Of a stretch of 64,000 bases of DNA, positions 29,059 to 59,588 are shown piece by piece. The notes under the pieces are model-generated. The model made no database searches. It was not told the origin of the DNA and saw nothing but the letters and a program-made list of their open reading frames with translations. The first letter of the stretch is position 1. Every line of letters begins with the position of its first letter. This DNA comes from Candidatus Krumholzibacteriota bacterium (lineage in GTDB: Bacteria > Krumholzibacteriota > Krumholzibacteriia > JAJRXK01). The DNA lies in assembly GCA_029262065.1 (NCBI GenBank), contig JAJDAC010000023.1, positions 3,828-67,827 of the forward strand. The letters run 5' to 3'. Made by a program: the position numbers and the translations under genes.

Positions 29059-29889
29059 GTGAGCGCCAAAGTCGCCGTGCTTCAGTTCCCCGGTCTGAAT
29101 TGTGAACGCGAAAGCGTTCGCGTGCTGGAGCGCGTAGGCGTGACGGCCGAGCTGGTGCGATGGAACGCGCCCCGGAACGCATTGGCTGAGTACGCCGGGT
29201 TTCTCATCCCCGGCGGATTCAGCTACCAGGATCGTGTGCGGGCCGGCGCGGTTGCGGCGAAGTCGCCATTGCTGGAGCAGCTGGTGCGTCAGGCCGAGCA
29301 GGGCAAACCCGTGCTGGGCATTTGCAACGGAGCGCAGATTCTGGTCGAAGCGGGCCTGGTGCACGGCGGGGCCGCCGGCACGGCGCGCACCGTCGACGTA
29401 GCGCTGGCCCACAACAACATCGAGGGTCGCGAAGGTTATCTTTGCCGATGGGTGTTCGTGCGCGCCGGTGCCACGGCCCGATGTTTCTTCACCGAGGGAT
29501 TGGACGCGCCGTTTCCGGTTCCCATGGCCCACGGCGAGGGTCGGTTTGTCAGTCGCGACTCGGGTTATCTGGACCGTCTGAACGACCGCGAAGCGCTCGC
29601 GCTCACCTATTGTCAACCCGACGGCGCGCCGGCCCAGGGATTTCCCATGAATCCCAACGGGTCGCCGGGCGCGGTGGCCGGTGCTTCAGGGCTCGACGGT
29701 CAGGTGCTGGCGTTCATGCCGCACCCCGAACGCGCGGCCTGGCTGTGGCAGGTTCCCGAGGACATTGCCGGACCGTGGGGTGAGCGTCGACGGGCCGCGG
29801 TCCGCTCGTTCGAGGCGCTCGACGGTGACGGGCCGGGCATGGCCATGCTTCGCAACTTCGCGCGACTTTCCAAGGGCGGTGTGTCGTGA
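29059..29889 (+). CDS. purQ: Phosphoribosylformylglycinamidine synthase subunit PurQ (glutaminase)
   Basis: VAVLQFPGLNCERE...GFLIPGGFSYQD...PVLGICNGAQIL, a class I GATase triad context. Confidence 0.92.
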   Translation: MSAKVAVLQFPGLNCERESVRVLERVGVTAELVRWNAPRNALAEYAGFLIPGGFSYQDRVRAGAVAAKSPLLEQLVRQAEQGKPVLGICNGAQILVEAGLVHGGAAGTARTVDVALAHNNIEGREGYLCRWVFVRAGATARCFFTEGLDAPFPVPMAHGEGRFVSRDSGYLDRLNDREALALTYCQPDGAPAQGFPMNPNGSPGAVAGASGLDGQVLAFMPHPERAAWLWQVPEDIAGPWGERRRAAVRSFEALDGDGPGMAMLRNFARLSKGGVS

Positions 29890-30509
29890 ACGCCATGGCC
29901 TTGCTCGTGCGGCATCGCTCGGTGGACCTGGTGGCCATGACCGCGCTGCACGCGCTGCGCAGTTCCATGGGCGCTACCGGCTTGATCGACCTGAGGCGGG
30001 ACGATGTGTTCGCGTGGGAAGGCCCCGACCTGGGTGCGCCCGGTGCGTGGATCGAGCGCGCGACGGCCCAGGCCAACTGGTTCAATCCCAACAAGCACCG
30101 CTTCGCCCTCTTCGAGACCGCTCCCGGCGCTCTCGAGGCTGCGCGCACTGACAAGCCGTTTCCCACGCCGTGGTTGGGAGACCTGGTGGCAAGCGATCAT
30201 CCGGCTCTGGAAACCGGGCGATACGGGATCGCCGATTGGCTGGGTCCCCCCGAAGAGGGGTTTGCCGTTACACTCCTGGCGTGGGATCGTGAAATGGGCG
30301 AGGGGTCCTTGCCGGGCCGCCGCTGGCCCGCGGCGCAGACACGCGTCTTGCGGGCCCAGATGTGGACCCTCACGGTGCGCGAAGCGAGCGAGAAGGTCGC
30401 GTTTGAGACAGCCGAGAAACTCGCGATCACGCGAACACGAGACTCTGGACTCCTTGTGCATCCGCACATGGAGGGCTGGTGTTTTCTGCCGACCGGAGCA
30501 ACCGAATGA
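29886..30509 (+). CDS. purS: PurS-like protein, apparently a tandem (duplicated) PurS fold
   Basis: Residues about 1-85 align to PurS (HALRSSMGATGLIDLRRDDVFAWE; NPNKHRFALFE). Residues about 130-200 look like a second, degenerate PurS repeat. The gene overlaps the purQ stop (ATGA) and sits just upstream of purF. Confidence 0.6.
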   Translation: MNAMALLVRHRSVDLVAMTALHALRSSMGATGLIDLRRDDVFAWEGPDLGAPGAWIERATAQANWFNPNKHRFALFETAPGALEAARTDKPFPTPWLGDLVASDHPALETGRYGIADWLGPPEEGFAVTLLAWDREMGEGSLPGRRWPAAQTRVLRAQMWTLTVREASEKVAFETAEKLAITRTRDSGLLVHPHMEGWCFLPTGATE

Positions 30510-31996
30510 GCGCTGAGCCGAACGAATCGCCGGTGGACTCGCGAGCCGATCGCCTGCACGAGGAATGCGGGATCTTCGCGGTTGCCGGGCATCGCGATGC
30601 GGTATCGCTCACGACCATCGGCCTGGCTGCGCTGCAACATCGGGGTCAGGAGTCAGCGGGCATCGCGGTAAGCGATGGGCACGTCGTGAATTCCTACAAG
30701 AACATGGGATACGTGTCCGACGTTCTGACCGACCAAGCCGTCGAGTCGCTTCGGGGTGATCTGGCGATCGGCCATGTTCGCTACAGCACCACCGGAAGCA
30801 GCAATCGGCTGAACGCACAGCCCATCCAGGTGACCTACAAGGCCGGCGGAATGGCCATTGCTCACAATGGCAACCTGGTGAACGCGGCGTCGCTGCGGCG
30901 CGAGATGGAGGTGGCCGGATCCATATTCAATACTACCAACGACAGCGAAGTCATCCTGCACCTGATTGCGCGCAGCCCCCAGGAGACGCTCGATCGCGCG
31001 TTGGCCGAAGCGCTACGCAAGGTCAGCGGCGCCTACTCGCTGTTGCTGATCGACAAGGACAAGGTGGTGGTCGCTCGCGATCCCAAGGGCTTCCGCCCGT
31101 TGTGTCTGGGTCGGTTGGGAGACGCCTGGATTGCCGCCAGCGAAACCTGCGCTCTCGACATCGTGGGGGCCACGTACGAGCGCGACGTGGAGCCGGGTGA
31201 GATCGTCGTGTTGCACAACGATGGCCGGGTCGATACGTATCGCTTTGCCGAAGAGGCTACCGCCGCCATGTGCATCTTCGAGTACGTGTATTTCAGCCGA
31301 CCCGACAGTTACATCTACGGACGTAGCGTGGACAAGGTGCGCCGTCGGCAGGGAGAAATCCTGGGCCGTGAAGCGCCGTGCGACGCCGATGTGGTTATCG
31401 CGGTGCCCGACAGCAGCAATACATCGTCGTTGGGTTACGCCAGCGTCGCGGGATTGCCGTGGGAGTTGGGGCTCATTCGCAACCACTACGTGGGGCGAAC
31501 GTTCATCCGGCCCAGCCAGGCCATCCGGGATCTGTCGGTGCGCAAGAAATACAACCCGGTGCGACACGTGTTGGAGGGCAAGCGGGTGGTCATGGTCGAC
31601 GATTCGATTGTTCGTGGTACCACGATGCGTAAGCTGGTGAAAATGGTTCGGCTGGCGGGCGCGCGCGAGGTGCACCTGCGGATCAGCTCACCGCCCATCA
31701 CCCATCCCTGTCACTACGGCATCGATACGCCAATTCGGCAGGAGCTGATTGCCAGCAGCCATTCGGTCAAACAGATTGCCAGCTACCTGAACGTGGACAG
31801 CCTGGAGTATCTGAGCGTGGCGGGCCTCATGGAATCCGTGCGGACCACCGAAGGATTCTGCCAGGCTTGTTTCACCGGTCAGTATCCGGTGCGATTCGAA
31901 GAGGTAGACAAGAACGTCTTCGAGTCCCCCCAGTCTGGAACTCCGGCGGCGGTAGCCGAGGATCCCTTCAATCCTGGGTCCAAATCGGCCAAATAG
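30506..31996 (+). CDS. purF: Amidophosphoribosyltransferase
   Basis: Ntn-hydrolase CGIFAV after the propeptide. PRTase motif VVMVDDSIVRGTT. C-terminal Cys ligands (CHYGIDTP..., CQACFTGQYP). Confidence 0.93.
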   Translation: MSAEPNESPVDSRADRLHEECGIFAVAGHRDAVSLTTIGLAALQHRGQESAGIAVSDGHVVNSYKNMGYVSDVLTDQAVESLRGDLAIGHVRYSTTGSSNRLNAQPIQVTYKAGGMAIAHNGNLVNAASLRREMEVAGSIFNTTNDSEVILHLIARSPQETLDRALAEALRKVSGAYSLLLIDKDKVVVARDPKGFRPLCLGRLGDAWIAASETCALDIVGATYERDVEPGEIVVLHNDGRVDTYRFAEEATAAMCIFEYVYFSRPDSYIYGRSVDKVRRRQGEILGREAPCDADVVIAVPDSSNTSSLGYASVAGLPWELGLIRNHYVGRTFIRPSQAIRDLSVRKKYNPVRHVLEGKRVVMVDDSIVRGTTMRKLVKMVRLAGAREVHLRISSPPITHPCHYGIDTPIRQELIASSHSVKQIASYLNVDSLEYLSVAGLMESVRTTEGFCQACFTGQYPVRFEEVDKNVFESPQSGTPAAVAEDPFNPGSKSAK

Positions 31997-32427
31997 TCTG
32001 TAATTGGACGTTCTCCGACCGGAAAGCCTTTTCTGGTTCCCTGGTCCATCTCATGGCAGTAGGGGGTGGTCCGAGATGTGCTTTCGGACTATCATGGGAT
32101 GGACCGGCCAGCTACCGAACTGCTGATTGCATAGCAAGGTAGCGGAACCGGACACACGAGGAAGGGTGCCTGAGCCGCTCCGTCGAGCGCGAACGAGCTG
32201 CCCACCAGATCACGATCGTTCCGTCGACGTCGAGTGATTCCTGCGGGAATTCCCCACCCGTCGACTCCGGCCCGCCTTACCCGAAGTGCGGCGGCTCGGT
32301 CCGATACCGGGAACGACGAGGATCTCGTTGCGAGCGCTGGTTCGTCCGCGGACGGTCACGACCTTTTCACCGCTGAATATCTACCGATGGATGAAATATC
32401 CATCGACGAACTGAAACGGGATCGCCC

Positions 32428-34695
32428 GTGAACAATGACCACCCGCGGGTGGCCAACGGGACAAGCCTGGATTCTTCTGCGAGTCATCGGCTCGGTGAAT
32501 TGCTCGACGGTGAGATCTTACCCCGTCTGGAGCGACCGAGCAGGTACGTGGGGCCCTTCGAGCCCAGGGGAATCGTACAACCGGCTGTCCATGCCACCAG
32601 CCTAGCCCTCGTCTGGCCGTCAGTGCCTGAGGGCCACAAACTACCGACCTCGTTGGCACCCCTCACAGCGGCGCTGCGCGTCCGTACCGGCTTGCCCAGC
32701 CCCATAGCTTGCTGTCCCTCCGAAGACCTTCGACGAGAACTCAGCCGCAGCGGCCTACCCTGTTTTACCCGGCCGGCTTGGCGGGACCTTCGCTCGTACT
32801 CCGCCTGGCTGGTCTGGATTGACGAGCCGCTTCAGCTCCTGGGGTTGCTTTCCATCCTGCAGCTTTGCGGCCTGCCGGCCCGTGCCGCCGACCGCTCAGC
32901 CGATGCGCCGAAGTTGTTCCTGACTGGTCCGGGCGTGGCCCTCGCCACCGAGCTGTGTGCCGTGTACGGGCAGCCCATGCCACCGGCCGCGTCGGCGCAG
33001 ACACTGCTGGACGAGATCGCTGGAGCCTCGCACCCGACCCGGTCGATCGCAGGATCAGAAACCGTGATTTCGCCGATCGAATTCGGCGATTCTCCGATCA
33101 ATGGGACGGGCTTCCCCGAAGCGGCCATCGCGACCCGCGTGGTTACCGCGGCCGACCTGGTGCCGCAAGAACCCCACGAAGAATCTGGTGTCACTGAAAT
33201 CCCCCTCTGGGCGGCCAGTCGGCGGTTGCGGGGCGAGCTGGGTCTGGGAACCGACCACCTCGACGAGTGGGTTGATAGGGTTGTTGACGATCCGGCCGGT
33301 CAGATCCACCTGTTGCTGGCTATCGGGCTGCCGGGCGAGACCGACGCCGATCGCGCCAGCGTGGGTCAGCTGATTCACGACCTTCTGGCCAGGCTACCGC
33401 GAACCGCGAAGCAGCTCAGAGTTACCCTGGGTGTCTACGCGCCGAGCGGCCAGGAACTGGCCAATGGCTACATGCCCGCCCCGCCCCATGCGAGCGCGGA
33501 TTGGCTGGGCTCGCTGGGTGACGATCTGCGCCGCCGTAAGGTTCGTCACGCTCTGCCCGATCCCACGGTGGGGTGGACGAATAGTCTGTTGGCCGCGGCG
33601 GGTCCGTCGGCGGCCGAGGCGCTGGGTCGAGTTCATGAGGCGGGGGCCGGTCACGGCGAAACAACCCTGGCGCGAAATCTCGATCTGTGGCACAAAGCGT
33701 TGCAAGTAGATCACTTGTTCGCCGGGCTCGACTCTAGTTCCGACGAACTTTCGACTCTGCCAACCGCCCTCGCGAGGGTTGTGAAGCAGGGCGCATCGAT
33801 CAGTTCCTGGGTTCGCGACGACGCGCATCCGGAGCCGACGGGCTTGGCCCAACCGGCTCCCGCATCGTCGAGGCCCCAACACGACGCGGAGGCGACACGG
33901 CGCGCCCAGCGTCCGGACCCTTCCGGGGGTCGATCCCGCCGTGCCGACGACCGGTGGAAGCGCTGGCAAGCGCTCGCACCTCGCCATTTCGAGTATCGAC
34001 TGGAGTACTCGAAGCGGGGACAAGTGCGATTTCTCGGGCACCGAGAGCTATCGGATCTGATCCTGGAGGCCTGCCGTGGGGCGCAGCTTCCAGTTGCTAC
34101 GGCGGGTATTGTGCAGCCGCGACCGAAGGTTTCCTTCAGTCCGCCGTTGCCGGTCGGTGTCGAGGGCGTGCGCGAATGCGTCGACCTCTGTCTGACGCGG
34201 AAAGAACCCCACATCCAGTCAACGTTGAATGAACAGTTGCCTGAGGGTCTTTGGATTCGAAGAGTCCGTTTCATTCCCTCCGCCACCAGTCGTACAACGC
34301 TGGGCCACGTGGCCCGCGCCGAATACGAGGTGGAGTTGAGCGGAGAACGGGCTCTGGCCGCGGTGCGAGATTGGATCAGCACGCGTGGAACCATGGACCA
34401 AGACGAGGCAGAAACGAAAGAGCACCAGATCTGTACCCTCAACCTGGACGAAACGGGCGAATTGCCGCGGGTGCGCTTCAGCCTGGATCTGACGGTCCCC
34501 CAGGCGAAGCTGCGACCGCTGGAAGTCCTGTCTCTACTGGTGGGCGATCTGGATATCGACATCCGAACTCTACCCATGCGGCGCACGAGCCTACTGGTCT
34601 CTCGCAACGAGGGCGATTCCCCGTTCTGTACCCCAATGGAACAGGTAGAACACGCCTATCGGCAAATGCGAGCCCGAGCCAAGCTCTGTGCCTGA
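32428..34695 (+). CDS. Fusion of a degenerate, Cys-less radical-SAM-like domain (TIGR03960-like) to DUF2344 (TIGR03936-like)
   Basis: GTG start. The N-terminal LERPSRYVGPFEP..ALVWPSVPEGHKLPTSL...LFLTGPGVAL and LLLAIGLPGETDADR follow the TIGR03960 layout. No CxxxCxxC is present anywhere in the protein. The C-terminal 220 aa (RFLGHRELSDLILEACRGAQLPVATAGIVQPRPKVSFSPPLPVGVEGVRECVDL...) resemble DUF2344. The stop overlaps the rne start. Confidence 0.7.
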   Translation: MNNDHPRVANGTSLDSSASHRLGELLDGEILPRLERPSRYVGPFEPRGIVQPAVHATSLALVWPSVPEGHKLPTSLAPLTAALRVRTGLPSPIACCPSEDLRRELSRSGLPCFTRPAWRDLRSYSAWLVWIDEPLQLLGLLSILQLCGLPARAADRSADAPKLFLTGPGVALATELCAVYGQPMPPAASAQTLLDEIAGASHPTRSIAGSETVISPIEFGDSPINGTGFPEAAIATRVVTAADLVPQEPHEESGVTEIPLWAASRRLRGELGLGTDHLDEWVDRVVDDPAGQIHLLLAIGLPGETDADRASVGQLIHDLLARLPRTAKQLRVTLGVYAPSGQELANGYMPAPPHASADWLGSLGDDLRRRKVRHALPDPTVGWTNSLLAAAGPSAAEALGRVHEAGAGHGETTLARNLDLWHKALQVDHLFAGLDSSSDELSTLPTALARVVKQGASISSWVRDDAHPEPTGLAQPAPASSRPQHDAEATRRAQRPDPSGGRSRRADDRWKRWQALAPRHFEYRLEYSKRGQVRFLGHRELSDLILEACRGAQLPVATAGIVQPRPKVSFSPPLPVGVEGVRECVDLCLTRKEPHIQSTLNEQLPEGLWIRRVRFIPSATSRTTLGHVARAEYEVELSGERALAAVRDWISTRGTMDQDEAETKEHQICTLNLDETGELPRVRFSLDLTVPQAKLRPLEVLSLLVGDLDIDIRTLPMRRTSLLVSRNEGDSPFCTPMEQVEHAYRQMRARAKLCA

Positions 34696-37600
34696 AGCAA
34701 GTGAGAACATGCACAACGAAATCATCATCAACTCCACCGTCAATGAAGTCCGTATTGGACTCATGGAAGACAATGAACTGGTGGAAGTCTCGGTCGAGCG
34801 TTCCGACGGCAAGCGTGTCGTCGGCAACGTATACAAAGGCGTAGTCACCGCGGTTCGTCCCGGACTGCAGGCTGCCTTTGTCGACATTGGAATGGAAAAG
34901 GCCGGCTTCCTGCACGTGAGCGATCTCGTGCACGAAGACAGCAACGAAGACGACGATCCGCCCCCCAGCGCTGGCCGCGGTGGCCGAGGCCGTCCCCCCG
35001 CACGCGGTGGCCGGATGCGCGGGCGCGGTCGTTCGCGCGACCCAATCCGCCCGATTGAAACCCTCATTCGTGAGGGCGACGAGATCCTGGTGCAGGTGAC
35101 CAAAGAGGTCATCGGGACCAAGGGCCCGCGCCTGACGGCCGACATCAGCATGCCGGGACGCTTTCTGGTCATGATGCCCAAGGGCACGCACGTCGGCGTG
35201 AGCCGCAAGATCGAAGATCGCCGTGAGCGGGCCCGGCTGCGGGACCTCCTGTCACGGCTGCGTCCCAAGGGCAGCAAAGAGGCGTACATCATCCGCACCG
35301 CGGGTATTGGCATCGAAGAAAAGATGCTGCAACGCGACATGGAGCACCTGCACGGCCTGTGGCAGTCGCTTGAGCGCAATTCACAGGAGATGAAGGCGCC
35401 GGCGCTGATCCACGAAGACGTGGGCTCGGTCGTGGGTCTGGTGCGCGATATCTTCAAGGAAGACATCAACGCGCTGTGGATCGACAACAAGGACGACTAC
35501 GAAGCGCTCATGCGCTACGTGAAGACGTTCTCGCCCGAGTTGAAGGACCGACTGCGGTTCTACGAGGGCGATGTGCCCATCTTCGACAAGTTCGGCATCG
35601 AAGCCGAAATCAAGAAGAGCCTGGATCGCAAGGTCTGGCTCAGGCGTGGGGGCTTCCTGGTGGTCGAACAGACCGAGGCCATGGTCACCATCGACGTCAA
35701 CACCGGGCGCTACACGGGCAAGAAGAACCAGGAAGAGACCATCTTCCGGACCAACATGCTCGCCGCGCGCGAGGTGCCGCGCCAGCTTCGCCTACGCGAT
35801 ATCGGTGGCATTATCGTCATCGACTTCATCGACATGGAGAGCGAGTCCGATCGCCGCAAGGTGCTCAACGAGTTGCGTACGTACCTCCGGCGTGACCGCA
35901 GTCGCACCAAGACATTTGGCGTGAGCGAGCTGGGTCTGGTGGAAATGAGCCGCCAACGCGTGCGCGAGAGCCTCAAGGACCAGCTCAGCGATCACTGCCC
36001 GTTCTGTCGTGGAACCGGTCAGGTGCTCTCGCTCGAGACGCTTTCGAACAAGGTCGAGCTCCTGCTCACCAAGGTCAACTACAAGACCCGCGAAAAGGAA
36101 ATCCAGATCGTGGCCAACCCTTCGTTGGCCATGGCCCTTCTGGATGATCGCTGGGCCGCCGTTTCCGGAATCGCCAAAGAGTACGGTTTCCGTTTGGACG
36201 TAATCGACGATCCCCGTTTACACCGCGAAGAGTTCCAGATTCGCGCGCTGAAATCGCAAAAGGACCTGGTGCCCGAGCTGGAGGCTTCGGACAAGAAGAA
36301 CGACGGCTATTCCGACGCAAGCCGTCGGGGACGCGGTGAGGCTCGCGCTGATCGATCGCAGAGCACCGATCGTGGTCGCGGCGGTCGTGACCGCGGACCT
36401 CGCGAAGAAGAGGCAGAAGATCGCGGACGCGGACGCCGACGTCGCCGAGGCGCCGAGGGTTCCGAGCGCGATGGCGGACGCGGTCGCTCGGCCAGCGGAA
36501 CCGGTAGAGGTCAACAGGGTGATCAGGACTCGCGCCCCGACTCGCGTGACTCGCGCGGATCTCGCGATTCCCGCAGCTCGCAGGGTTCGCGTAGTTCGCA
36601 GGGTTCGCGTAGTTCGCAGGATTCCCGCGGTTCGCAAGGGTCGACCGATTCGCAGAGCTCGTCGCGTGACAGCCAACGCGGAGCCCCACGGGATCGAGAC
36701 CGGGGCGCGGAATCGCCGCGCGGTGATCGCGGGGCCAGCGAAGTAGCTTCCTCCGAATCGTCCGACGGTTCGCGTCGCCGTCGCCGGCGTCGGCGGGGCC
36801 GGGGCCGAGGCGGGCGATCTGAAGAGGTCGCCACCGGAGCGGCGACAGGCGCCAACGCCGGGAACCGGTCGGACTCGTCGGCGCAGGGCGACCGCGCTCA
36901 ACGTGACGATCGACCCGCCAGGGCGGACCGAGTGGACCGCGAAGACCGTGGTCGATCCGAACGGGTAGACAAGCCCGAGCGGGGAGACAAGCCCGAGCGG
37001 GGAGACAGGCCCGAGCGGGGAGACAGGCCCGAGCGGGTAAGCCGGACCGAGCGCGGCGATCGCTACCGAAGCGATAGAGAGCGCGACGCGGCCCAGGTTT
37101 CGACCGACCGCAATGAACAGAGCGAGGGAGAGACCAGGGGTCGACGCACGTCGCGCGTTCGTCGCGGAGGCCGCTCGGCCGAAGCCGAAGACACCGGACG
37201 TAGCCGAGAGAACGTGGCGGAGGGTGTCCCGGCCGAAGAACGCGCGGTGGAACGTTCCGTCGAGCACGTCGTCGAATCGACGCTGTCAGAAGGCACGGCG
37301 CCAACGCCCGAAGCGACGGAGCGTCACCCACGCGACACCGAGGAAAACACGCAGCGCCGTCGCCGCCGCTCGCGGCGTGGAGGCGTTCGTTCGCGTGGTT
37401 CTTCGTCTGATGATTCTTCGGGTAGTGCGCCGGTCGAGGACAAACCTCGCACACCGTCGCCGCAGGATACACCGCGCCGTGATGGTGGCGCCGCCGCTGG
37501 CCCCGCCGACGCGGCTCCTACGCCGCCCCCGGAGCCAGCTCCCAGTGGAGGCTCCAGCTCAGATCAGCCGCGTCGTCGCCGTCGTCGCCGTCGTCGCACG

Positions 37601-37705
37601 TCATCTACGACCCGCAACAGTGGTGATTCCCCGAAGAGTGAGTCCGAGAAGAAAGACGCGCCCTCGCCGCCGCTGGCCATGAGTGCCGACGGAGAGGGCA
37701 AGTAA
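34688..37705 (+). CDS. rne: Ribonuclease E with a long Arg/Ser/Asp/Gly-rich disordered C-terminal domain
   Basis: N-terminal S1 and catalytic core (MHNEIIINSTVNEVRIGLMEDNELVEV...; Zn-link CPFCRGTG). Beyond about residue 515 the sequence is low-complexity with RS/SQG and DKPERG repeats, as in degradosome-scaffold RNase E. Confidence 0.9.
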   Translation: MPEASENMHNEIIINSTVNEVRIGLMEDNELVEVSVERSDGKRVVGNVYKGVVTAVRPGLQAAFVDIGMEKAGFLHVSDLVHEDSNEDDDPPPSAGRGGRGRPPARGGRMRGRGRSRDPIRPIETLIREGDEILVQVTKEVIGTKGPRLTADISMPGRFLVMMPKGTHVGVSRKIEDRRERARLRDLLSRLRPKGSKEAYIIRTAGIGIEEKMLQRDMEHLHGLWQSLERNSQEMKAPALIHEDVGSVVGLVRDIFKEDINALWIDNKDDYEALMRYVKTFSPELKDRLRFYEGDVPIFDKFGIEAEIKKSLDRKVWLRRGGFLVVEQTEAMVTIDVNTGRYTGKKNQEETIFRTNMLAAREVPRQLRLRDIGGIIVIDFIDMESESDRRKVLNELRTYLRRDRSRTKTFGVSELGLVEMSRQRVRESLKDQLSDHCPFCRGTGQVLSLETLSNKVELLLTKVNYKTREKEIQIVANPSLAMALLDDRWAAVSGIAKEYGFRLDVIDDPRLHREEFQIRALKSQKDLVPELEASDKKNDGYSDASRRGRGEARADRSQSTDRGRGGRDRGPREEEAEDRGRGRRRRRGAEGSERDGGRGRSASGTGRGQQGDQDSRPDSRDSRGSRDSRSSQGSRSSQGSRSSQDSRGSQGSTDSQSSSRDSQRGAPRDRDRGAESPRGDRGASEVASSESSDGSRRRRRRRRGRGRGGRSEEVATGAATGANAGNRSDSSAQGDRAQRDDRPARADRVDREDRGRSERVDKPERGDKPERGDRPERGDRPERVSRTERGDRYRSDRERDAAQVSTDRNEQSEGETRGRRTSRVRRGGRSAEAEDTGRSRENVAEGVPAEERAVERSVEHVVESTLSEGTAPTPEATERHPRDTEENTQRRRRRSRRGGVRSRGSSSDDSSGSAPVEDKPRTPSPQDTPRRDGGAAAGPADAAPTPPPEPAPSGGSSSDQPRRRRRRRRRTSSTTRNSGDSPKSESEKKDAPSPPLAMSADGEGK
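36527..36672 (+). repeat. Tandem 18-bp repeats inside the rne CTD encoding (S-Q-G-S-R-S)n
   Basis: cagggttcgcgtagttcg occurs twice exactly and is flanked by degenerate copies. Confidence 0.7.
36968..37039 (+). repeat. Four tandem 18-bp repeats inside the rne CTD encoding (D-[KR]-P-E-R-G)4
   Basis: gacaagcccgagcgggga, gacaagcccgagcgggga, gacaggcccgagcgggga and gacaggcccgagcgggta. Confidence 0.8.
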
Positions 37706-54990: not shown

Positions 54991-55935
54991 CTAGGGATCA
55001 CGGGGCAGGACGGTCAATCCAATCGAATCGACAGAAGCCGACCCGAACAGGCCGATTCCGCCCTCTACGTGAAACAAGGGCCGATCGAAGCCGTCGCCCG
55101 TGTTGCCTCCGACCGTGAAGCCAGCCTCTGCCTCTGGAAGTGATCGCACCAGGTCGAACCAGTTTCGGTCGACCGAGTACACGTAGAATTTGTAGCGACC
55201 GGCGAAATAGATGGCCAACCAGGGCAGTCGAATCTCACCCTCTTCGGCGACGAACATGGGTGAACTGATAATGCGATCGAGATCATCAAAGTCTTCCTCA
55301 TCGAAGAACTCGGGGTCGATCACGAAGTCTGAGTCGAGGTCAAGGCTGAAAAGCCCCACCTCGTAGGCAATCTGGCGCGGGTCGGACAGGTCGCGGGCAA
55401 AGCGTGCCTCGAGCAGTCCGTCGGAGTACACCACCTGGTTGTCTTCGTAGACCTGGTCGCCTACGTCTTCGAAGTGGGTGAACTCACCCACCACCTCGGT
55501 CCCGTCGTCGTTCAGCACCAGCCAATCGATAGCACCAACGCGGGGTGGCGTCCGCGTGCGCGCGGTGATCAGTTCGTCGTCGGCGGTCAGCACGCGCAAT
55601 TCGTACATGGTGTCGGGCATCACGAGCGCGGCCGGGTCACCGGGCACGTACACGCCGCGTTGATCGGGCGACCGCACATAGAACAGCTCCATGCCGTCGC
55701 CAGTGATTCGCACGTCGGCGTTCTCTTCCACCGCAGCCACCGGATCGAACGGTTGGGTCGGGTCGAGCGTGCGGCCCACGCGAATGGCGGGAAATCGGGC
55801 GTCCACGCGTAGCACCGCGTCGACAACCACGACGCCTACTTCATTGGCGTTGAACAGATCGCGTTCGCATCCGGTGCTTGGCACCAGCGACGAAATCCCG
55901 ATCAAGAAGCCCAGGATTCTGGTTCTAGAATTCAA
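54991..55935 (-). CDS. Hypothetical lipoprotein encoded immediately downstream of the TonB-dependent receptor (DUF4249-like position)
   Basis: Lipobox LVPSTGC. Acidic. The start overlaps the TBDR stop. Confidence 0.6.
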   Translation of the reverse strand: MNSRTRILGFLIGISSLVPSTGCERDLFNANEVGVVVVDAVLRVDARFPAIRVGRTLDPTQPFDPVAAVEENADVRITGDGMELFYVRSPDQRGVYVPGDPAALVMPDTMYELRVLTADDELITARTRTPPRVGAIDWLVLNDDGTEVVGEFTHFEDVGDQVYEDNQVVYSDGLLEARFARDLSDPRQIAYEVGLFSLDLDSDFVIDPEFFDEEDFDDLDRIISSPMFVAEEGEIRLPWLAIYFAGRYKFYVYSVDRNWFDLVRSLPEAEAGFTVGGNTGDGFDRPLFHVEGGIGLFGSASVDSIGLTVLPRDP

Positions 55936-58186
55936 ACTCCACCCCCAGGCTGGGAATCAAGGGCAGCTGCTTGACCACGTCGGGCAGCTGGCCCGGATCG
56001 TTGATGTTGTACTGCACGAACCAATCGTTGCGGTTGCTGTAGGCGTTGAACAGCTGGAATTGCCATCGGGCGGGCAACCCGAACAGGGAGAATTCGCGTC
56101 GGGCGCTGAAGTCCAATCGGTGGTAGGGGAGCAGGCGGGCGCTGTTGCGGGCCGCCGGTAGGTATTCACCGAACTCGGGTACCAGACCCGTCGCGGGGTC
56201 GCGTAGTCCGAAGATGGCCGAGGCCGGTGTGAATGCCTGACCCGTGCCGTACACGAAATTGAATCCGAAATCCCACGCCCCGCGCGACACGCTCATGACG
56301 GCCTTGAAATCGTGGCGGCGATCGTACTTGGGAGCGAACTCGTTGCCTTCGTTCACCTCGGCAAAGGTTCGACGGGTCCAACCCAACGTGTACCCCAACC
56401 AGCCGGTCACGCGTCCCTTTTTCTTCTGGATGAATACTTCGGCTCCGGTCGCGTAGCCCGTACCGCCGGTCAGAAAAATTGTCGTGGCGTCGACCTGACT
56501 CTCATCGACGGGAGCCTCGGTATCGAACAACACCAGGCTCTGCAGGTCGGTGTAGTAGCCCTCGACCGCGGCGGACCAGGTGCCGCCGGCATCCCATTCG
56601 AGTCCCAGCACCGACTGGACCGAGCGGCTGGGATCGGTGGTGTCGTCGATGGGGAGGTAGAAATCGGCCGCGGCAAAGCCCTCCGTGCTCACAAGCTGCA
56701 GGTACTGGTAGTAGAGGCCACCGGCCGCTTTCACCTGCCACTGGTCGTTGATCTTCTGCCGCAACGAAAGCCGCGGCTCGACGAGCCTGCGATTGCCGTC
56801 GTCGAGAAACCGTGCGCGTGCCCCCAGTCGAAGCGTGGTCTCGGGCCGTGGTCGCCAGAGATCTTCCGCGTATACCGAGTATTCCTTGGGCCGGCGATCA
56901 AAGTCGACGTCCACGTCGCGGTTGAAGGATTGCAGGAACTCGAACCGGTACGTCGACGCAGCAACTCCCAGTTTGAGCCGGTGATGCGGTGGTAGCGCCA
57001 CGCTCAAGCTGGCTTGGCCCGAAACGTCGTTGAGTTCGTTCTCGATCGAGATGGGGGTGGTGAGCACCTGAAAGTCGCTGTCGCTGCGGTATCGACTCCA
57101 CGATCCCACGACATTGGCGACCACGCGTTCGCCGATGACGCGGGTCCAGGCGCTGGAAGCGATCGTGTTTCCCCAGGTAAGGTTCAGGAATGTGTCGGGG
57201 TCGGGTTCCACCCTCAGCACATCGTTGCTTCGATACAGCCAGAACTCGAACTTGTTGTTGCCGCGGGGCAGGGTGTACTTCGCATTGCCATCGTAGAAAT
57301 AATAGGAGGGAATTTCCGAATTGTTGCGTCGCAAAGCGTTGAGTATGGGGTCCAGGTACGTGCGGCGTCCTCCCAACGACCAGGTTCCACCGGCCAGAGG
57401 GCCCTCGACCTGCGCGCGCGCGGCGATGGTGCTTATGCCGACGCGGCCCGAAACCTCGTTGGCCGTGTTGCCGCGGCTACGCACGTCGAGTACCGAGCCC
57501 AGCCGGCCCCCGTATTCGGCCGGGTAGGCGCCCTTGAACAGGGTGACCTGATCGACCATGGCGGGGTTGAAGGTGGAGAACAACCCGAACGCGTGCGTCG
57601 GGTTGTAGATCGGCACCTGATCCAGCAACACCAGGTTCTGGTCGGGCCCACCGCCCCGCACATACAGACCGCTGGAAATGTCGGAGGCGGCCTGCACCCC
57701 GGGCAGGAGCTGGAGCGCGCGTATGGGGTCGGCCTCGCCGATGGCGGGGATGGAAGCCAAGTCGTCCGAGGTGAGTTTCACGAAACCGGCCTGGACCTCT
57801 TCCTCCACCTGGTCGCGGTCACCGAATACCACCTGCTCTTCCATTTCGATGGCTTTTACCACCATGCGAACCACGAGCGGCTCGTCCTGCCCCGTCAGGG
57901 CAATGGGTAGGGTGAGGGAGTCGTATCCGATGTAGGAGAACTTCAACTCGTAGCGCCCCGGCGGCAGGTCGGTGACCGTGAATCCCCCGTCGGTCCGGGT
58001 CAGGACGCTCTGATCCACGTTGCCCGTATCGGTGCTGGTTATCGCCACGACACAGAAAGCCAGAGGGGCATTGTCTTCGTCGTCGACGACCACGCCGGCC
58101 AGATTGGCCGCGTGTACATTCGACGACAGTGTGACCAACAGACACGCAATCCAGCCCAGTATGGCCATGCGAACCTTCGGAAACAT
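55925..58186 (-). CDS. TonB-dependent outer-membrane receptor with an N-terminal carboxypeptidase-regulatory-like domain
   Basis: Start at ATG 58186 with a GAGGA SD, and the 126-aa upstream extension in the track was rejected. Signal peptide. The CarbopepD_reg-like segment is AGVVVDDEDNAPLAFCVVAI...TVTDLPPGRYELKFSYIGY. Plug motifs are present. The C-terminal OMP ending is ...SLGVEFEF. Confidence 0.88.
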   Translation of the reverse strand: MFPKVRMAILGWIACLLVTLSSNVHAANLAGVVVDDEDNAPLAFCVVAITSTDTGNVDQSVLTRTDGGFTVTDLPPGRYELKFSYIGYDSLTLPIALTGQDEPLVVRMVVKAIEMEEQVVFGDRDQVEEEVQAGFVKLTSDDLASIPAIGEADPIRALQLLPGVQAASDISSGLYVRGGGPDQNLVLLDQVPIYNPTHAFGLFSTFNPAMVDQVTLFKGAYPAEYGGRLGSVLDVRSRGNTANEVSGRVGISTIAARAQVEGPLAGGTWSLGGRRTYLDPILNALRRNNSEIPSYYFYDGNAKYTLPRGNNKFEFWLYRSNDVLRVEPDPDTFLNLTWGNTIASSAWTRVIGERVVANVVGSWSRYRSDSDFQVLTTPISIENELNDVSGQASLSVALPPHHRLKLGVAASTYRFEFLQSFNRDVDVDFDRRPKEYSVYAEDLWRPRPETTLRLGARARFLDDGNRRLVEPRLSLRQKINDQWQVKAAGGLYYQYLQLVSTEGFAAADFYLPIDDTTDPSRSVQSVLGLEWDAGGTWSAAVEGYYTDLQSLVLFDTEAPVDESQVDATTIFLTGGTGYATGAEVFIQKKKGRVTGWLGYTLGWTRRTFAEVNEGNEFAPKYDRRHDFKAVMSVSRGAWDFGFNFVYGTGQAFTPASAIFGLRDPATGLVPEFGEYLPAARNSARLLPYHRLDFSARREFSLFGLPARWQFQLFNAYSNRNDWFVQYNINDPGQLPDVVKQLPLIPSLGVEFEF

Positions 58187-58277
58187 CGAATCCTCGTTGC
58201 TGGCGGGGGTTTGTCGATCTACCATCGGGCCTCGCCCCGTTCCTTGCATGTGGCCTGCCAGGCAGAAGTCCGGATCC

Positions 58278-59588
58278 ATGAACCCACCCTTGAAGCCACG
58301 CCAGAAGCTTGGCAAGTACCGCATCCTACGTCGGATTGCCGACGGAGGTTTCGCGCGTGTGTACCGCGCCCACGACACCGTCGAGGGCATAGACGTAGCC
58401 CTCAAGATTCCCCATGCACATCTGATAACCGAGGGCACGCTGGTCGATTTTCGCCGCGAGGCGCGCATCACGGCGCGGCTGGAGCACCCGAACATACTTC
58501 CCCTCAAGAACGCCGATTTCATCGACGAACGCTTCGTGATTGCCTCGCCACTGGGCGAAGGCACGTTGGAAGAGCGGTTGGGGCGACGAATTACACTGAC
58601 GCGTTCGTTGGATTACGCCGATCAGATTCTCGCGGCACTAGCTTACGCGCATTCTCATCGGGTGATCCACTGCGATGTGAAGCCCGACAACTTCATGCTG
58701 TTCGAGCCCGATCGCCTTCGCCTGGGGGATTTCGGCATTTCCAAGGTCCAGTTGCAGACCATGATGAGCGCGTCGGGCTCGGGTACGTTGGGGTACGTGG
58801 CGCCCGAGCAGGCCATGGGCCGCCCAACCTACCGGTCGGACTGCTTTTCGGCGGGGCTCATCATCTACCGGATGCTCGTGGGAGAGTTGCCGAGTTGGCC
58901 GTTCAACTGGCCATTGCCCGGCAATGAGCGGCTGCGACGCAAGGTGTCGCCGGCCATGATCAGCTTTCTGAAGCGTAGCCTCATGGTCGACGAAAAAAAG
59001 CGGTTCCGTGACGCAGGCCAGATGCAGGCGGCTTTTGCCCGCATCAAGCCGCGCGAGCTGAGTCGTGCGAACTCGCAATCCTCGCCCAAGAAGAAGGTCC
59101 AGAAGGACTGGCGAGCGCTGCGGCAGCGAGCCTTCCAGCGTATCTACGGGCGCGAGCTGGGCACCAAACACGAGTGCGGCCGTTGCCGTCGCCCCGTGAG
59201 CGAGGCCATGCGTTGGTGCCCATGGTGTGCGAATACCCGGCGGGTCCACCGCGACGACAGCGCCTTTCCGAAGCAGTGCCGGCGCTGCGGCCGCGGTATG
59301 AAGTTGGATTGGGTGTATTGCGCGCATTGTTACGGTGCATCGCAGGGACCCGACTCCGATCGATCCTACACCGACAAGCGCTACACCCATCGTTGCGGCA
59401 GCTGCAAGGGCGACCTCATGCCACACATGCGCTACTGCCCGTGGTGTCGGCGCAAGGTGTTGCGTAAGTGGAAGCTGGAATCGGGGGGCAACAAATGTAC
59501 TTCGTGTGGTTGGGATGTCGCGGGGGAGTTCTGGCGCCACTGTCCGTGGTGCGGCACTGGCATGACCCATGAAAAGGCGCGTCCATGA
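58278..59588 (+). CDS. Hanks-type Ser/Thr protein kinase with four C-terminal zinc-ribbon (CxxC...CPWC) motifs
   Basis: Kinase subdomains (VALKIP; HRVIHCDVKPDNFML; DFG; GTLGYVAPE). The C-terminus carries HECGRCRR...RWCPWCAN, KQCRRCGR...VYCAHCYG, HRCGSCKG...RYCPWCRR and NKCTSCGW...RHCPWCGT. Confidence 0.85.
   Translation: MNPPLKPRQKLGKYRILRRIADGGFARVYRAHDTVEGIDVALKIPHAHLITEGTLVDFRREARITARLEHPNILPLKNADFIDERFVIASPLGEGTLEERLGRRITLTRSLDYADQILAALAYAHSHRVIHCDVKPDNFMLFEPDRLRLGDFGISKVQLQTMMSASGSGTLGYVAPEQAMGRPTYRSDCFSAGLIIYRMLVGELPSWPFNWPLPGNERLRRKVSPAMISFLKRSLMVDEKKRFRDAGQMQAAFARIKPRELSRANSQSSPKKKVQKDWRALRQRAFQRIYGRELGTKHECGRCRRPVSEAMRWCPWCANTRRVHRDDSAFPKQCRRCGRGMKLDWVYCAHCYGASQGPDSDRSYTDKRYTHRCGSCKGDLMPHMRYCPWCRRKVLRKWKLESGGNKCTSCGWDVAGEFWRHCPWCGTGMTHEKARP

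Follow-up and report, generated by a model that had tools for sequence, protein, structure and literature searches.

A radical-SAM-like DUF2344 fusion protein without iron-sulphur cysteines, encoded upstream of RNase E in a Candidatus Krumholzibacteriota genome

Radical S-adenosylmethionine (SAM) enzymes of the MiaB and RimO kind combine an N-terminal flavodoxin-like domain, a radical-SAM barrel and a C-terminal substrate-binding domain, and a CxxxCxxC cysteine triad ligates the [4Fe-4S] cluster that binds and cleaves SAM. MiaB and RimO share this three-part architecture with the ancestor type of the protein described here, namely the fusions of TIGR03960 (B12-binding radical SAM) and TIGR03936 (DUF2344), whose genes are commonly found upstream of that for ribonuclease (RNase) E/G. 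Both patterns, the fused state and the association with RNase E/G, are known already. The proteins are numerous, tightly linked to RNase E/G and often also to L21/L27, and they are currently annotated only as "DUF2344 domain-containing" or "radical SAM-linked". Here we analyze a stretch of 64,000 nucleotides (nt) from a Candidatus Krumholzibacteriota bacterium (contig JAJDAC010000023.1; hereafter the window), in which an open reading frame (ORF) of 755 amino acids (aa) with a GTG start, at 32428..34695 on the + strand, joins a degenerate TIGR03960-like part to DUF2344 and precedes rne. By sequence, the protein is descended from the canonical fusions. We favor the reading that it is a radical-SAM pseudoenzyme which has been retained as a partner without catalytic activity, probably one that binds RNA, and which would be made together with RNase E; we give this reading a probability of roughly 0.55. 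What is new is a conserved clade that has lost both cysteine clusters along with half of the barrel, the recurrence of cysteine loss while the RNase E/G context is kept, and a map of the structural elements that survive.

Degeneration of the radical-SAM part

The fused ORF reported in a first-pass annotation of the window proved to be real. Its GTG start is supported by three full-length homologues, which open with the same M-x-x-D-H...V motif as the window protein. An identical copy is held in the public protein collection (P0001), and an independent assembly of a read set (Logan SRR15505514) also yielded a gene with the identical protein. The DUF2344 domain scores above the curated cut-offs, with 90.9 bits against 71.9 for TIGR03936 (profile positions 2-208 of 209) and 81 bits against 23.8 for PF10105 (E 1.3e-22), and the matches span aa 523-722. 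The association of TIGR03936 with a TIGR03960-type protein is found here within a single ORF, where DUF2344 is fused to a degenerate TIGR03960 homologue. The fusion, to which the annotation had drawn attention, is not special to the window; most of the relatives found also have the radical-SAM part joined to DUF2344.

Single-model searches recognize the N-terminal half only faintly. The TIGR03960 hidden Markov model (HMM) scores 19.4 bits against a curated cut-off of 462.3 (E 3e-4; aa 29-170, profile positions 2-143 of 605), Radical_SAM_N2 (PF19864) falls below its Pfam gathering threshold of 29 bits, and the Radical_SAM core model PF04055 has no match in the 755-aa protein at E values up to 1. 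Profile-profile comparison (hhalign) of 18 family members with 16 canonical fused proteins aligned the two groups end to end over 720 columns, with a probability of 100% and an E value of 8.2e-66. The proposed TIGR03960 layout of this half is thus borne out, and on this comparison we regard it as certain that the N-terminal ~430 aa share descent with TIGR03960 radical-SAM proteins. Canonical fusions such as the cyanobacterial proteins P0005 (891 aa) and P0038 (882 aa) have the same domain order as the window protein and are homologous to it over the whole length. They also share GLPGET and APEAGS..LR-type motifs with it, and the GLPGETDADR segment of the window protein aligns with the canonical MIGLPGET motif.

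The canonical fusions carry C..GCRFC at aa ~250-290, a full barrel of strands beta1 to beta6 and, in many cases, a second cysteine cluster, whereas the window protein has none of the three and is ~100-130 aa shorter. As the annotation had stated, CxxxCxxC is absent from the whole protein. It is equally absent from all 18 full-length members of the window family, and C..GCRFC is present in 100 of the 118 full-length relatives outside the family. In the profile alignment, the canonical segment ...EIMRGCTRGCRFCQAG... has no counterpart in the family profile, which is gapped there. The annotation had looked for the remains of the triad in EIPLWAASRRLRGELGLG (EIPLWAAS..., aa ~255-272), and this assignment has to be given up: its canonical counterpart in the alignment is LTFAPEAGSxRLRxxINK, the beta4 strand, found ~100 residues past the triad. 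The alignment indicates that the triad region is missing from the window protein rather than substituted.

AlphaFold models were made of the window protein and of canonical P0038. In the P0038 model (predicted local distance difference test (pLDDT) 86, predicted template modelling score (pTM) 0.89), a flavodoxin-like N-domain and two small strands are followed by the barrel strands with their helices (beta1 264-267, beta2 311-315, beta3 342-344, beta4 369-374, beta5 407-414 and beta6 446-453), and CTRGCRFC, at aa 272-279, comes after beta1. The beta1-beta3 part with its helices occupies aa 211-361 of this model. In the model of the window protein (pLDDT 78.7, pTM 0.80), the N-domain is the same as in the canonical protein, and the three barrel strands correspond by profile alignment to beta4, beta5 and beta6 (Table 1). 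Values of pLDDT below 50 occur at aa 203-235, 432-443 and 478-502. By the alignment and the models, ~160 canonical residues, from beta1 to alpha3, have been replaced by a linker of ~47 residues that is predicted to be disordered.

The second cluster, C-x4-5-C-x2-C-x2-C at canonical aa ~560-610, sits between the radical-SAM part and DUF2344, as exemplified by CREAGCFDCGAC at aa 592 of P0038. It occurs in 61 of the 100 relatives that bear the cysteine triad, in none of the 18 family members, and in none of 36 Cys-less proteins in all. Because no Cys-less protein has the second cluster, the two cysteine sites have been lost together.

When six canonical proteins were compared with the 64-kb window by tblastn, matches were found only in frame +1 of the 755-aa ORF, with canonical aa 7-219 mapping to 32500-33114 and aa 362-924 to 33178-34692. 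Canonical aa 220-360 matched nothing in any frame or elsewhere in the 64 kb. Therefore, a hidden frameshift or a second copy carrying the Cys triad within the window is rejected. Neither feature of the radical SAM superfamily that we looked for is found in the protein, that is, neither the CxxxCxxC triad nor the partial (beta/alpha)6 barrel of PF04055. Given the loss of the triad and the known role of the triad in cluster and SAM binding, we judge [4Fe-4S] binding and radical SAM chemistry to be impossible for the window protein, and we predict that it shows neither Fe-S binding nor reductive SAM cleavage. The annotation had proposed a dead radical-SAM half beside a preserved DUF2344; with both Cys clusters and beta1-beta3 gone, the case is stronger than proposed.

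Conservation of the family and its Cys-less relatives

An HMM search of 1.84 billion protein representatives retrieved 7205 of them at E <= 1e-3, with a sharp step in score between the window family (244-1172 bits) and the canonical fused proteins (at most 210 bits). The canonical proteins were each matched in two or three segments, with their aa ~180-350 left uncovered. The window family comprises at least 18 full-length clusters at 50% identity, with intact ORFs of ~700-820 aa, and full-length homologues are 32-42% identical to the window protein. Mean pairwise identity within the family is 41% in the N-domain, 36% in the barrel remnant, 29% in the helical extension and 42-48% in DUF2344. 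It is 20%, with 26% gaps, in the variable block at aa 176-262, which contains the linker at aa 203-249, and 19% in the linker at aa 431-505. The surviving parts, namely the N-domain, the beta4-beta6 half-barrel with its helical extension and DUF2344, are conserved across the whole lineage. This domain-shaped conservation fits purifying selection that acts on the dead half, too.

The loss of the triad is not confined to the window family. CTRGCRFC is carried by all of the nearest named loci among the matches listed (WOR-3, Eisenbacteria and others), and the triad is also absent from 18 further full-length relatives (814-909 aa) among the best 150 matches. Relatives had been suggested as the place to look for the same loss, and the survey bears this out. 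The L002 locus looks Cys-less in the frame chosen but was not counted; the DNA just before that frame reads ...VVELARGCA..., which suggests a broken frame in that assembly. In a rough neighbor-joining (NJ) tree the 18 Cys-less relatives fall into about three groups. Group 1 (P0077 and P0058, P0049, P0041, P0076 and P0136) is the nearest neighbor of the window family. In P0041, P0049, P0058, P0076 and P0136 the beta1 strand is still recognizable (e.g. MVMEMAR, LSLEIRR) and the cysteines are substituted. Because these five proteins keep a beta1-like strand with substituted cysteines, the comparison suggests that cysteine loss preceded the barrel deletion. Group 2 includes P0095, the Calditrichota protein RMI25505.1, which is annotated only as a DUF2344 domain-containing protein, and group 3 includes P0057.

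Like the window protein, the Cys-less proteins P0095, P0041 and P0077 have neither CxxxCxxC nor the second cluster and are encoded upstream of RNase E/G, but they keep full length, whereas the window family has also lost the beta1-beta3 half of the barrel. The genes for P0041 and P0077 precede RNase E/G, L21 and L27 (loci L085 2665-5054 and L089 8584-11251), and that for P0095 precedes an RNase G-sized gene. RNase E/G adjacency is thus seen in two of the three Cys-less groups. In L089, the array of Cys-less fusion, RNase E/G, L21 and L27 is itself preceded by mreCD-pbp2-rodA. The 16S rRNA methyltransferase RsmB, encoded next to P0057, is a different RNA-processing neighbor for the same kind of protein. 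Taken as a whole, the sequences suggest that radical chemistry has been dispensable more than once in the superfamily.

Linkage to RNase E and organization of the locus

In all seven family loci in view (the window, L082, L083, L084, L090, L091 and L092), RNase E follows 12-23 nt after the stop codon on the same strand. Of 80 loci of more distant relatives, taken from the matches listed in reference genomes, 46 encode RNase E/G on the same strand no more than 3 kb downstream, so that the general linkage on which the annotation had drawn stands. Conservation among the family loci extends to the block purL-purQ-x-purF-[gene]-rne-(ygjP-like, rhomboid). The downstream gene of the window is a clear member of the Rne/Rng family (TIGR00757, 488.1 bits against a cut-off of 325.95; PF10150, 337.8 bits, 6e-101), with S1 and thioredoxin-like domains.

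The stop codon of the fusion gene had been described as overlapping the rne start, and this was not confirmed. RNase E in three homologous loci opens with MHKEIV(I/V)NS or MQKEIVVN, 12-21 nt past the stop, and the corresponding start in the window is ATG 34709 (MHNEIIINS), 13 nt past the TGA. Because the homologous starts match this ATG, the GTG at 34688 that produced the stop/start overlap is most likely a longest-ORF artefact. A promoter and terminator scan of 31900-34800 showed no terminator-like site between the gene and rne and no sigma-70-type consensus beyond chance. Rfam gave no match in the whole window at the gathering threshold, nor in the 5' gap at E <= 1, and hence no known rne leader. 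The coordinates of the gene, its parts and its immediate surroundings are collected in Table 1.

Table 1. Coordinates of the fusion gene, its predicted parts and the adjoining features in the window
Feature	Residues (aa)	Positions (nt)	Strand	Basis or remark
431-nt gap from the purF stop to the start of the gene; presumably promoter/leader of the gene pair		31997..32427	+	ORF list
Whole gene: 755-aa degenerate TIGR03960-like and DUF2344 fusion		32428..34695	+	GTG start, TGA stop 34693-34695; ORF list, homologues
N-terminal flavodoxin-like (B12-binding-like, Radical_SAM_N2-type) domain, conserved	25-202	32500..33033	+	
Poorly conserved, low-confidence linker in place of canonical ~203-365 (beta1 with CxxxCxxC, alpha1, beta2, alpha2, beta3, alpha3)	203-249	33034..33174	+	Model, alignment
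Radical-SAM barrel remnant and helical C-terminal extension of TIGR03960	250-430	33175..33717	+	
Remnant strands beta4, beta5 and beta6	~255-261, 292-299, 330-337			
GLPGETDADR at beta5	300-309	33325-33354	+	
Variable linker, Arg-rich at its end, no Cys; counterpart of the canonical linker	431-505	33718..33942	+	Model, 19% identity, composition
DUF2344/TIGR03936 domain, predicted TruA-like pseudouridine-synthase fold	506-755	33943..34692	+	
Basic C-terminal helix, family-conserved (...RARAKLCA)	736-754			End of the DUF2344 domain
Purine-rich 13-nt spacer AGCAAGTGAGAAC, stop codon to probable rne start		34696..34708	+	Sequence; spacers of 12-23 nt in the other six loci of the family
RNase E, 998 aa from ATG 34709 (longest ORF: GTG 34688); catalytic N-terminal half and Arg/Ser-rich C-terminal half		34709..37705	+	TIGR00757, PF10150

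Upstream of the gene the order is purL, purQ, a 207-aa ORF and purF (30479..31996), followed by the 431-nt gap. A block at 32062-32105, GGTGGTCCGAGATGTGCTTTCGGACTATCATGGGA, is common to the gaps of the window, L083 and L084; it consists of a hairpin whose stem sequence varies, followed by an invariant TATCATG. The folding z-scores of this hairpin are only -1.7, -2.0 and 0.0 and it has no Rfam match, so a conserved hairpin upstream of the gene is unconvincing; the block could be an operon leader element, a purF terminator, or nothing. The 207-aa ORF (29886-30509, + strand) between purQ and purF has no Pfam match, and the same slot in L083, L090 and L091 holds a similar-sized gene without a family match. 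By its recurrence it is a conserved ORF of no assigned family within the purine operon of this lineage.

The C-terminal half of RNase E (36254-37705, ~480 aa) contains 21.7% Arg and 15% Ser and has an isoelectric point (pI) of 11. Its gene carries tandem repeats of 18 nt, in frame, which encode SQGSRS units at 36578-36641 and PERGDK/R units at 36957-37053, and an Arg run at 37571-37602. This half has the look of a disordered region of the scaffold type. L21 and L27 are not encoded downstream of rne in the window family, and a ygjP-like gene and an opposite-strand rhomboid gene are found there instead. Elsewhere in the window (3728-6307 and 55925-58564) are two markers of the Fibrobacterota-Chlorobiota-Bacteroidota (FCB) group, a type IX secretion system (T9SS) C-terminal sorting domain on a secreted M6-type metalloprotease and a SusC/RagA-like outer-membrane protein. 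The alanyl-tRNA synthetase (AlaRS) encoded in the window is 65-69% identical to about 27 proteins, of which the one assigned to a phylum comes from Candidatus Krumholzibacteria (68% identity). Together with the two markers, this places the lineage as Krumholzibacteriota-like within the FCB group.

Possible roles of the surviving protein

We next considered what the remaining protein may do. The DUF2344 domain is intact and is modelled as a TruA-type pseudouridine-synthase fold. Its fold matches include TruA-like proteins of mitoribosomal small-subunit assembly complexes (6sga, 9hny), and its sequence identity to TruA is 12-15%. Compared with TruA, Pus1 and Pus3 and with the 6sga and 9hny proteins, the window protein shows 9-15% identity. 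It has no match to PseudoU_synth_1 or any other catalytic pseudouridine-synthase model in Pfam or NCBIfam, so that membership of TruA by sequence is not found. The assembly-complex proteins of 6sga and 9hny may be a precedent for the TruA-like fold as a structural partner of RNA or the ribosome. Among solved radical-SAM structures, those closest by sequence to the core of the canonical family are 9ccb (MgmA), TM_1862/RimO and MiaB. The window protein differs from MiaB, RimO and MgmA in that it has no Fe-S ligands, a TruA-like C-terminal fold instead of TRAM, and no membership in their HMM families. Pfam lists the pseudouridine-synthase domain as split into PseudoU_synth_1 and DUF2344, so that DUF2344 is counted as part of that domain (PMC7955657). 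The canonical protein may therefore be seen as similar to a radical-SAM enzyme that acts on RNA or the ribosome and binds its substrate through a module with an RNA-enzyme fold.

From these comparisons we propose the following scheme. The ancestor was probably an enzyme that modified an RNA, or a substrate associated with the ribosome, in connection with RNase E/G processing. The modification would have been given up and the binding role kept, in this lineage and independently in others. In the window lineage the gene and rne would be co-transcribed and their products made together, and the protein would act without catalysis through its RNA-enzyme-like DUF2344 domain, with the former enzyme body serving as a scaffold. 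As a partner in RNase E-dependent RNA processing, it might bind RNA, present substrates or serve in assembly. The structural or RNase E-partner role first suggested in the annotation would fit the conservation of the remnant, which is consistent with purifying selection, the invariant synteny and the RNA-enzyme fold of DUF2344. More tentatively, the widespread TIGR03960-DUF2344 proteins encoded by RNase E/G may have a core role that does not depend on radical chemistry, such as RNA binding or presenting, or ribosome or degradosome assembly, through the TruA-like DUF2344. Several lineages would then have turned independently into pure pseudoenzyme partners of RNase E, with the window family as the most reduced form.

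Several observations weigh against a non-catalytic partner of RNase E. The DUF2344 domain is not basic (pI 6.6) and gives no extra support for general RNA binding, and all of the structures are predictions. RNase E/G is not adjacent in 34 of the 80 relatives' loci counted above, of which only five or six are too short to judge, and the P0057 gene (L088 2051-5907) precedes that for RsmB, with overlapping stop and start, and not RNase E/G. The number of independent Cys losses rests on a rough NJ tree. Literature searches on TIGR03960, TIGR03936, DUF2344, radical SAM with RNase E, and rplU/rpmA yielded no functional study of the canonical family, and none of the papers found deals with the TIGR03960/DUF2344 linkage to RNase E/G. 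Finally, the window covers only 64 kb of the genome, which leaves room for an intact radical-SAM paralogue acting in trans.

Other explanations can be set against the same data. DUF2344 could itself be an enzyme, either divergent and pseudouridine-synthase-like or otherwise RNA-modifying, with the radical-SAM half as a dispensable second activity. DUF2344 is indeed the best conserved part of the protein, and six residues that are invariant in canonical and Cys-less proteins alike (R524, K529, G531, E583, D586 and Y633) all lie within it. We nevertheless think this unlikely, as the domain matches no catalytic pseudouridine-synthase model, its identity to TruA is low, and no published DUF2344 activity was found in the literature searches. 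Radical chemistry might instead be supplied in trans by an intact TIGR03960-type protein encoded elsewhere, which would make the window fusion a non-catalytic partner or paralogue. A two-protein arrangement appears workable, because in some relatives (e.g. L011, L026, L047 and L067) the radical-SAM frame stops short of the DUF2344 match, as would be expected of separate genes, and the small part of the genome in view leaves space for such a gene. However, the 64-kb window contains no other radical-SAM match, the 5-10 kb around the gene in family loci L083, L090, L091 and L092 include no Radical_SAM gene, and each of the three Cys-less groups would need such a partner. We therefore hold supply in trans to be improbable.

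Still further from likely is that the protein is a functionless relic in slow decay that persists only through the rne transcription unit. The very low TIGR03960 score (19 bits), the long disordered linkers and the ~160 missing residues could be taken as signs of decay, but frames of similar length are intact in 18 or more clusters whose sequences diverge by ~60-65%, the model is compact and confident, and the C-terminal helix and the N-terminal motif are conserved. Decay is contradicted by the domain-shaped pattern of conservation, with 19-20% identity in the linkers and 36-48% in the domains. The idea that a sequencing or assembly error, or a frameshift, hides the triad can be regarded as refuted: canonical aa 220-360 are absent in every frame, the independent Logan assembly encodes the identical protein, and all family members, from many samples, have the same architecture without CxxxCxxC.

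The reading of the window protein as a pseudoenzyme partner of RNase E bears on a large group of proteins. The natural variants that are Cys-less and have half a barrel retain both DUF2344 and the N-domain and are still encoded beside RNase E, and they represent a ready-made separation-of-function experiment. The case gives an example of a radical-SAM pseudoenzyme, and the variants point to DUF2344 and the scaffold as the probable carriers of a conserved role that would be independent of radical chemistry.

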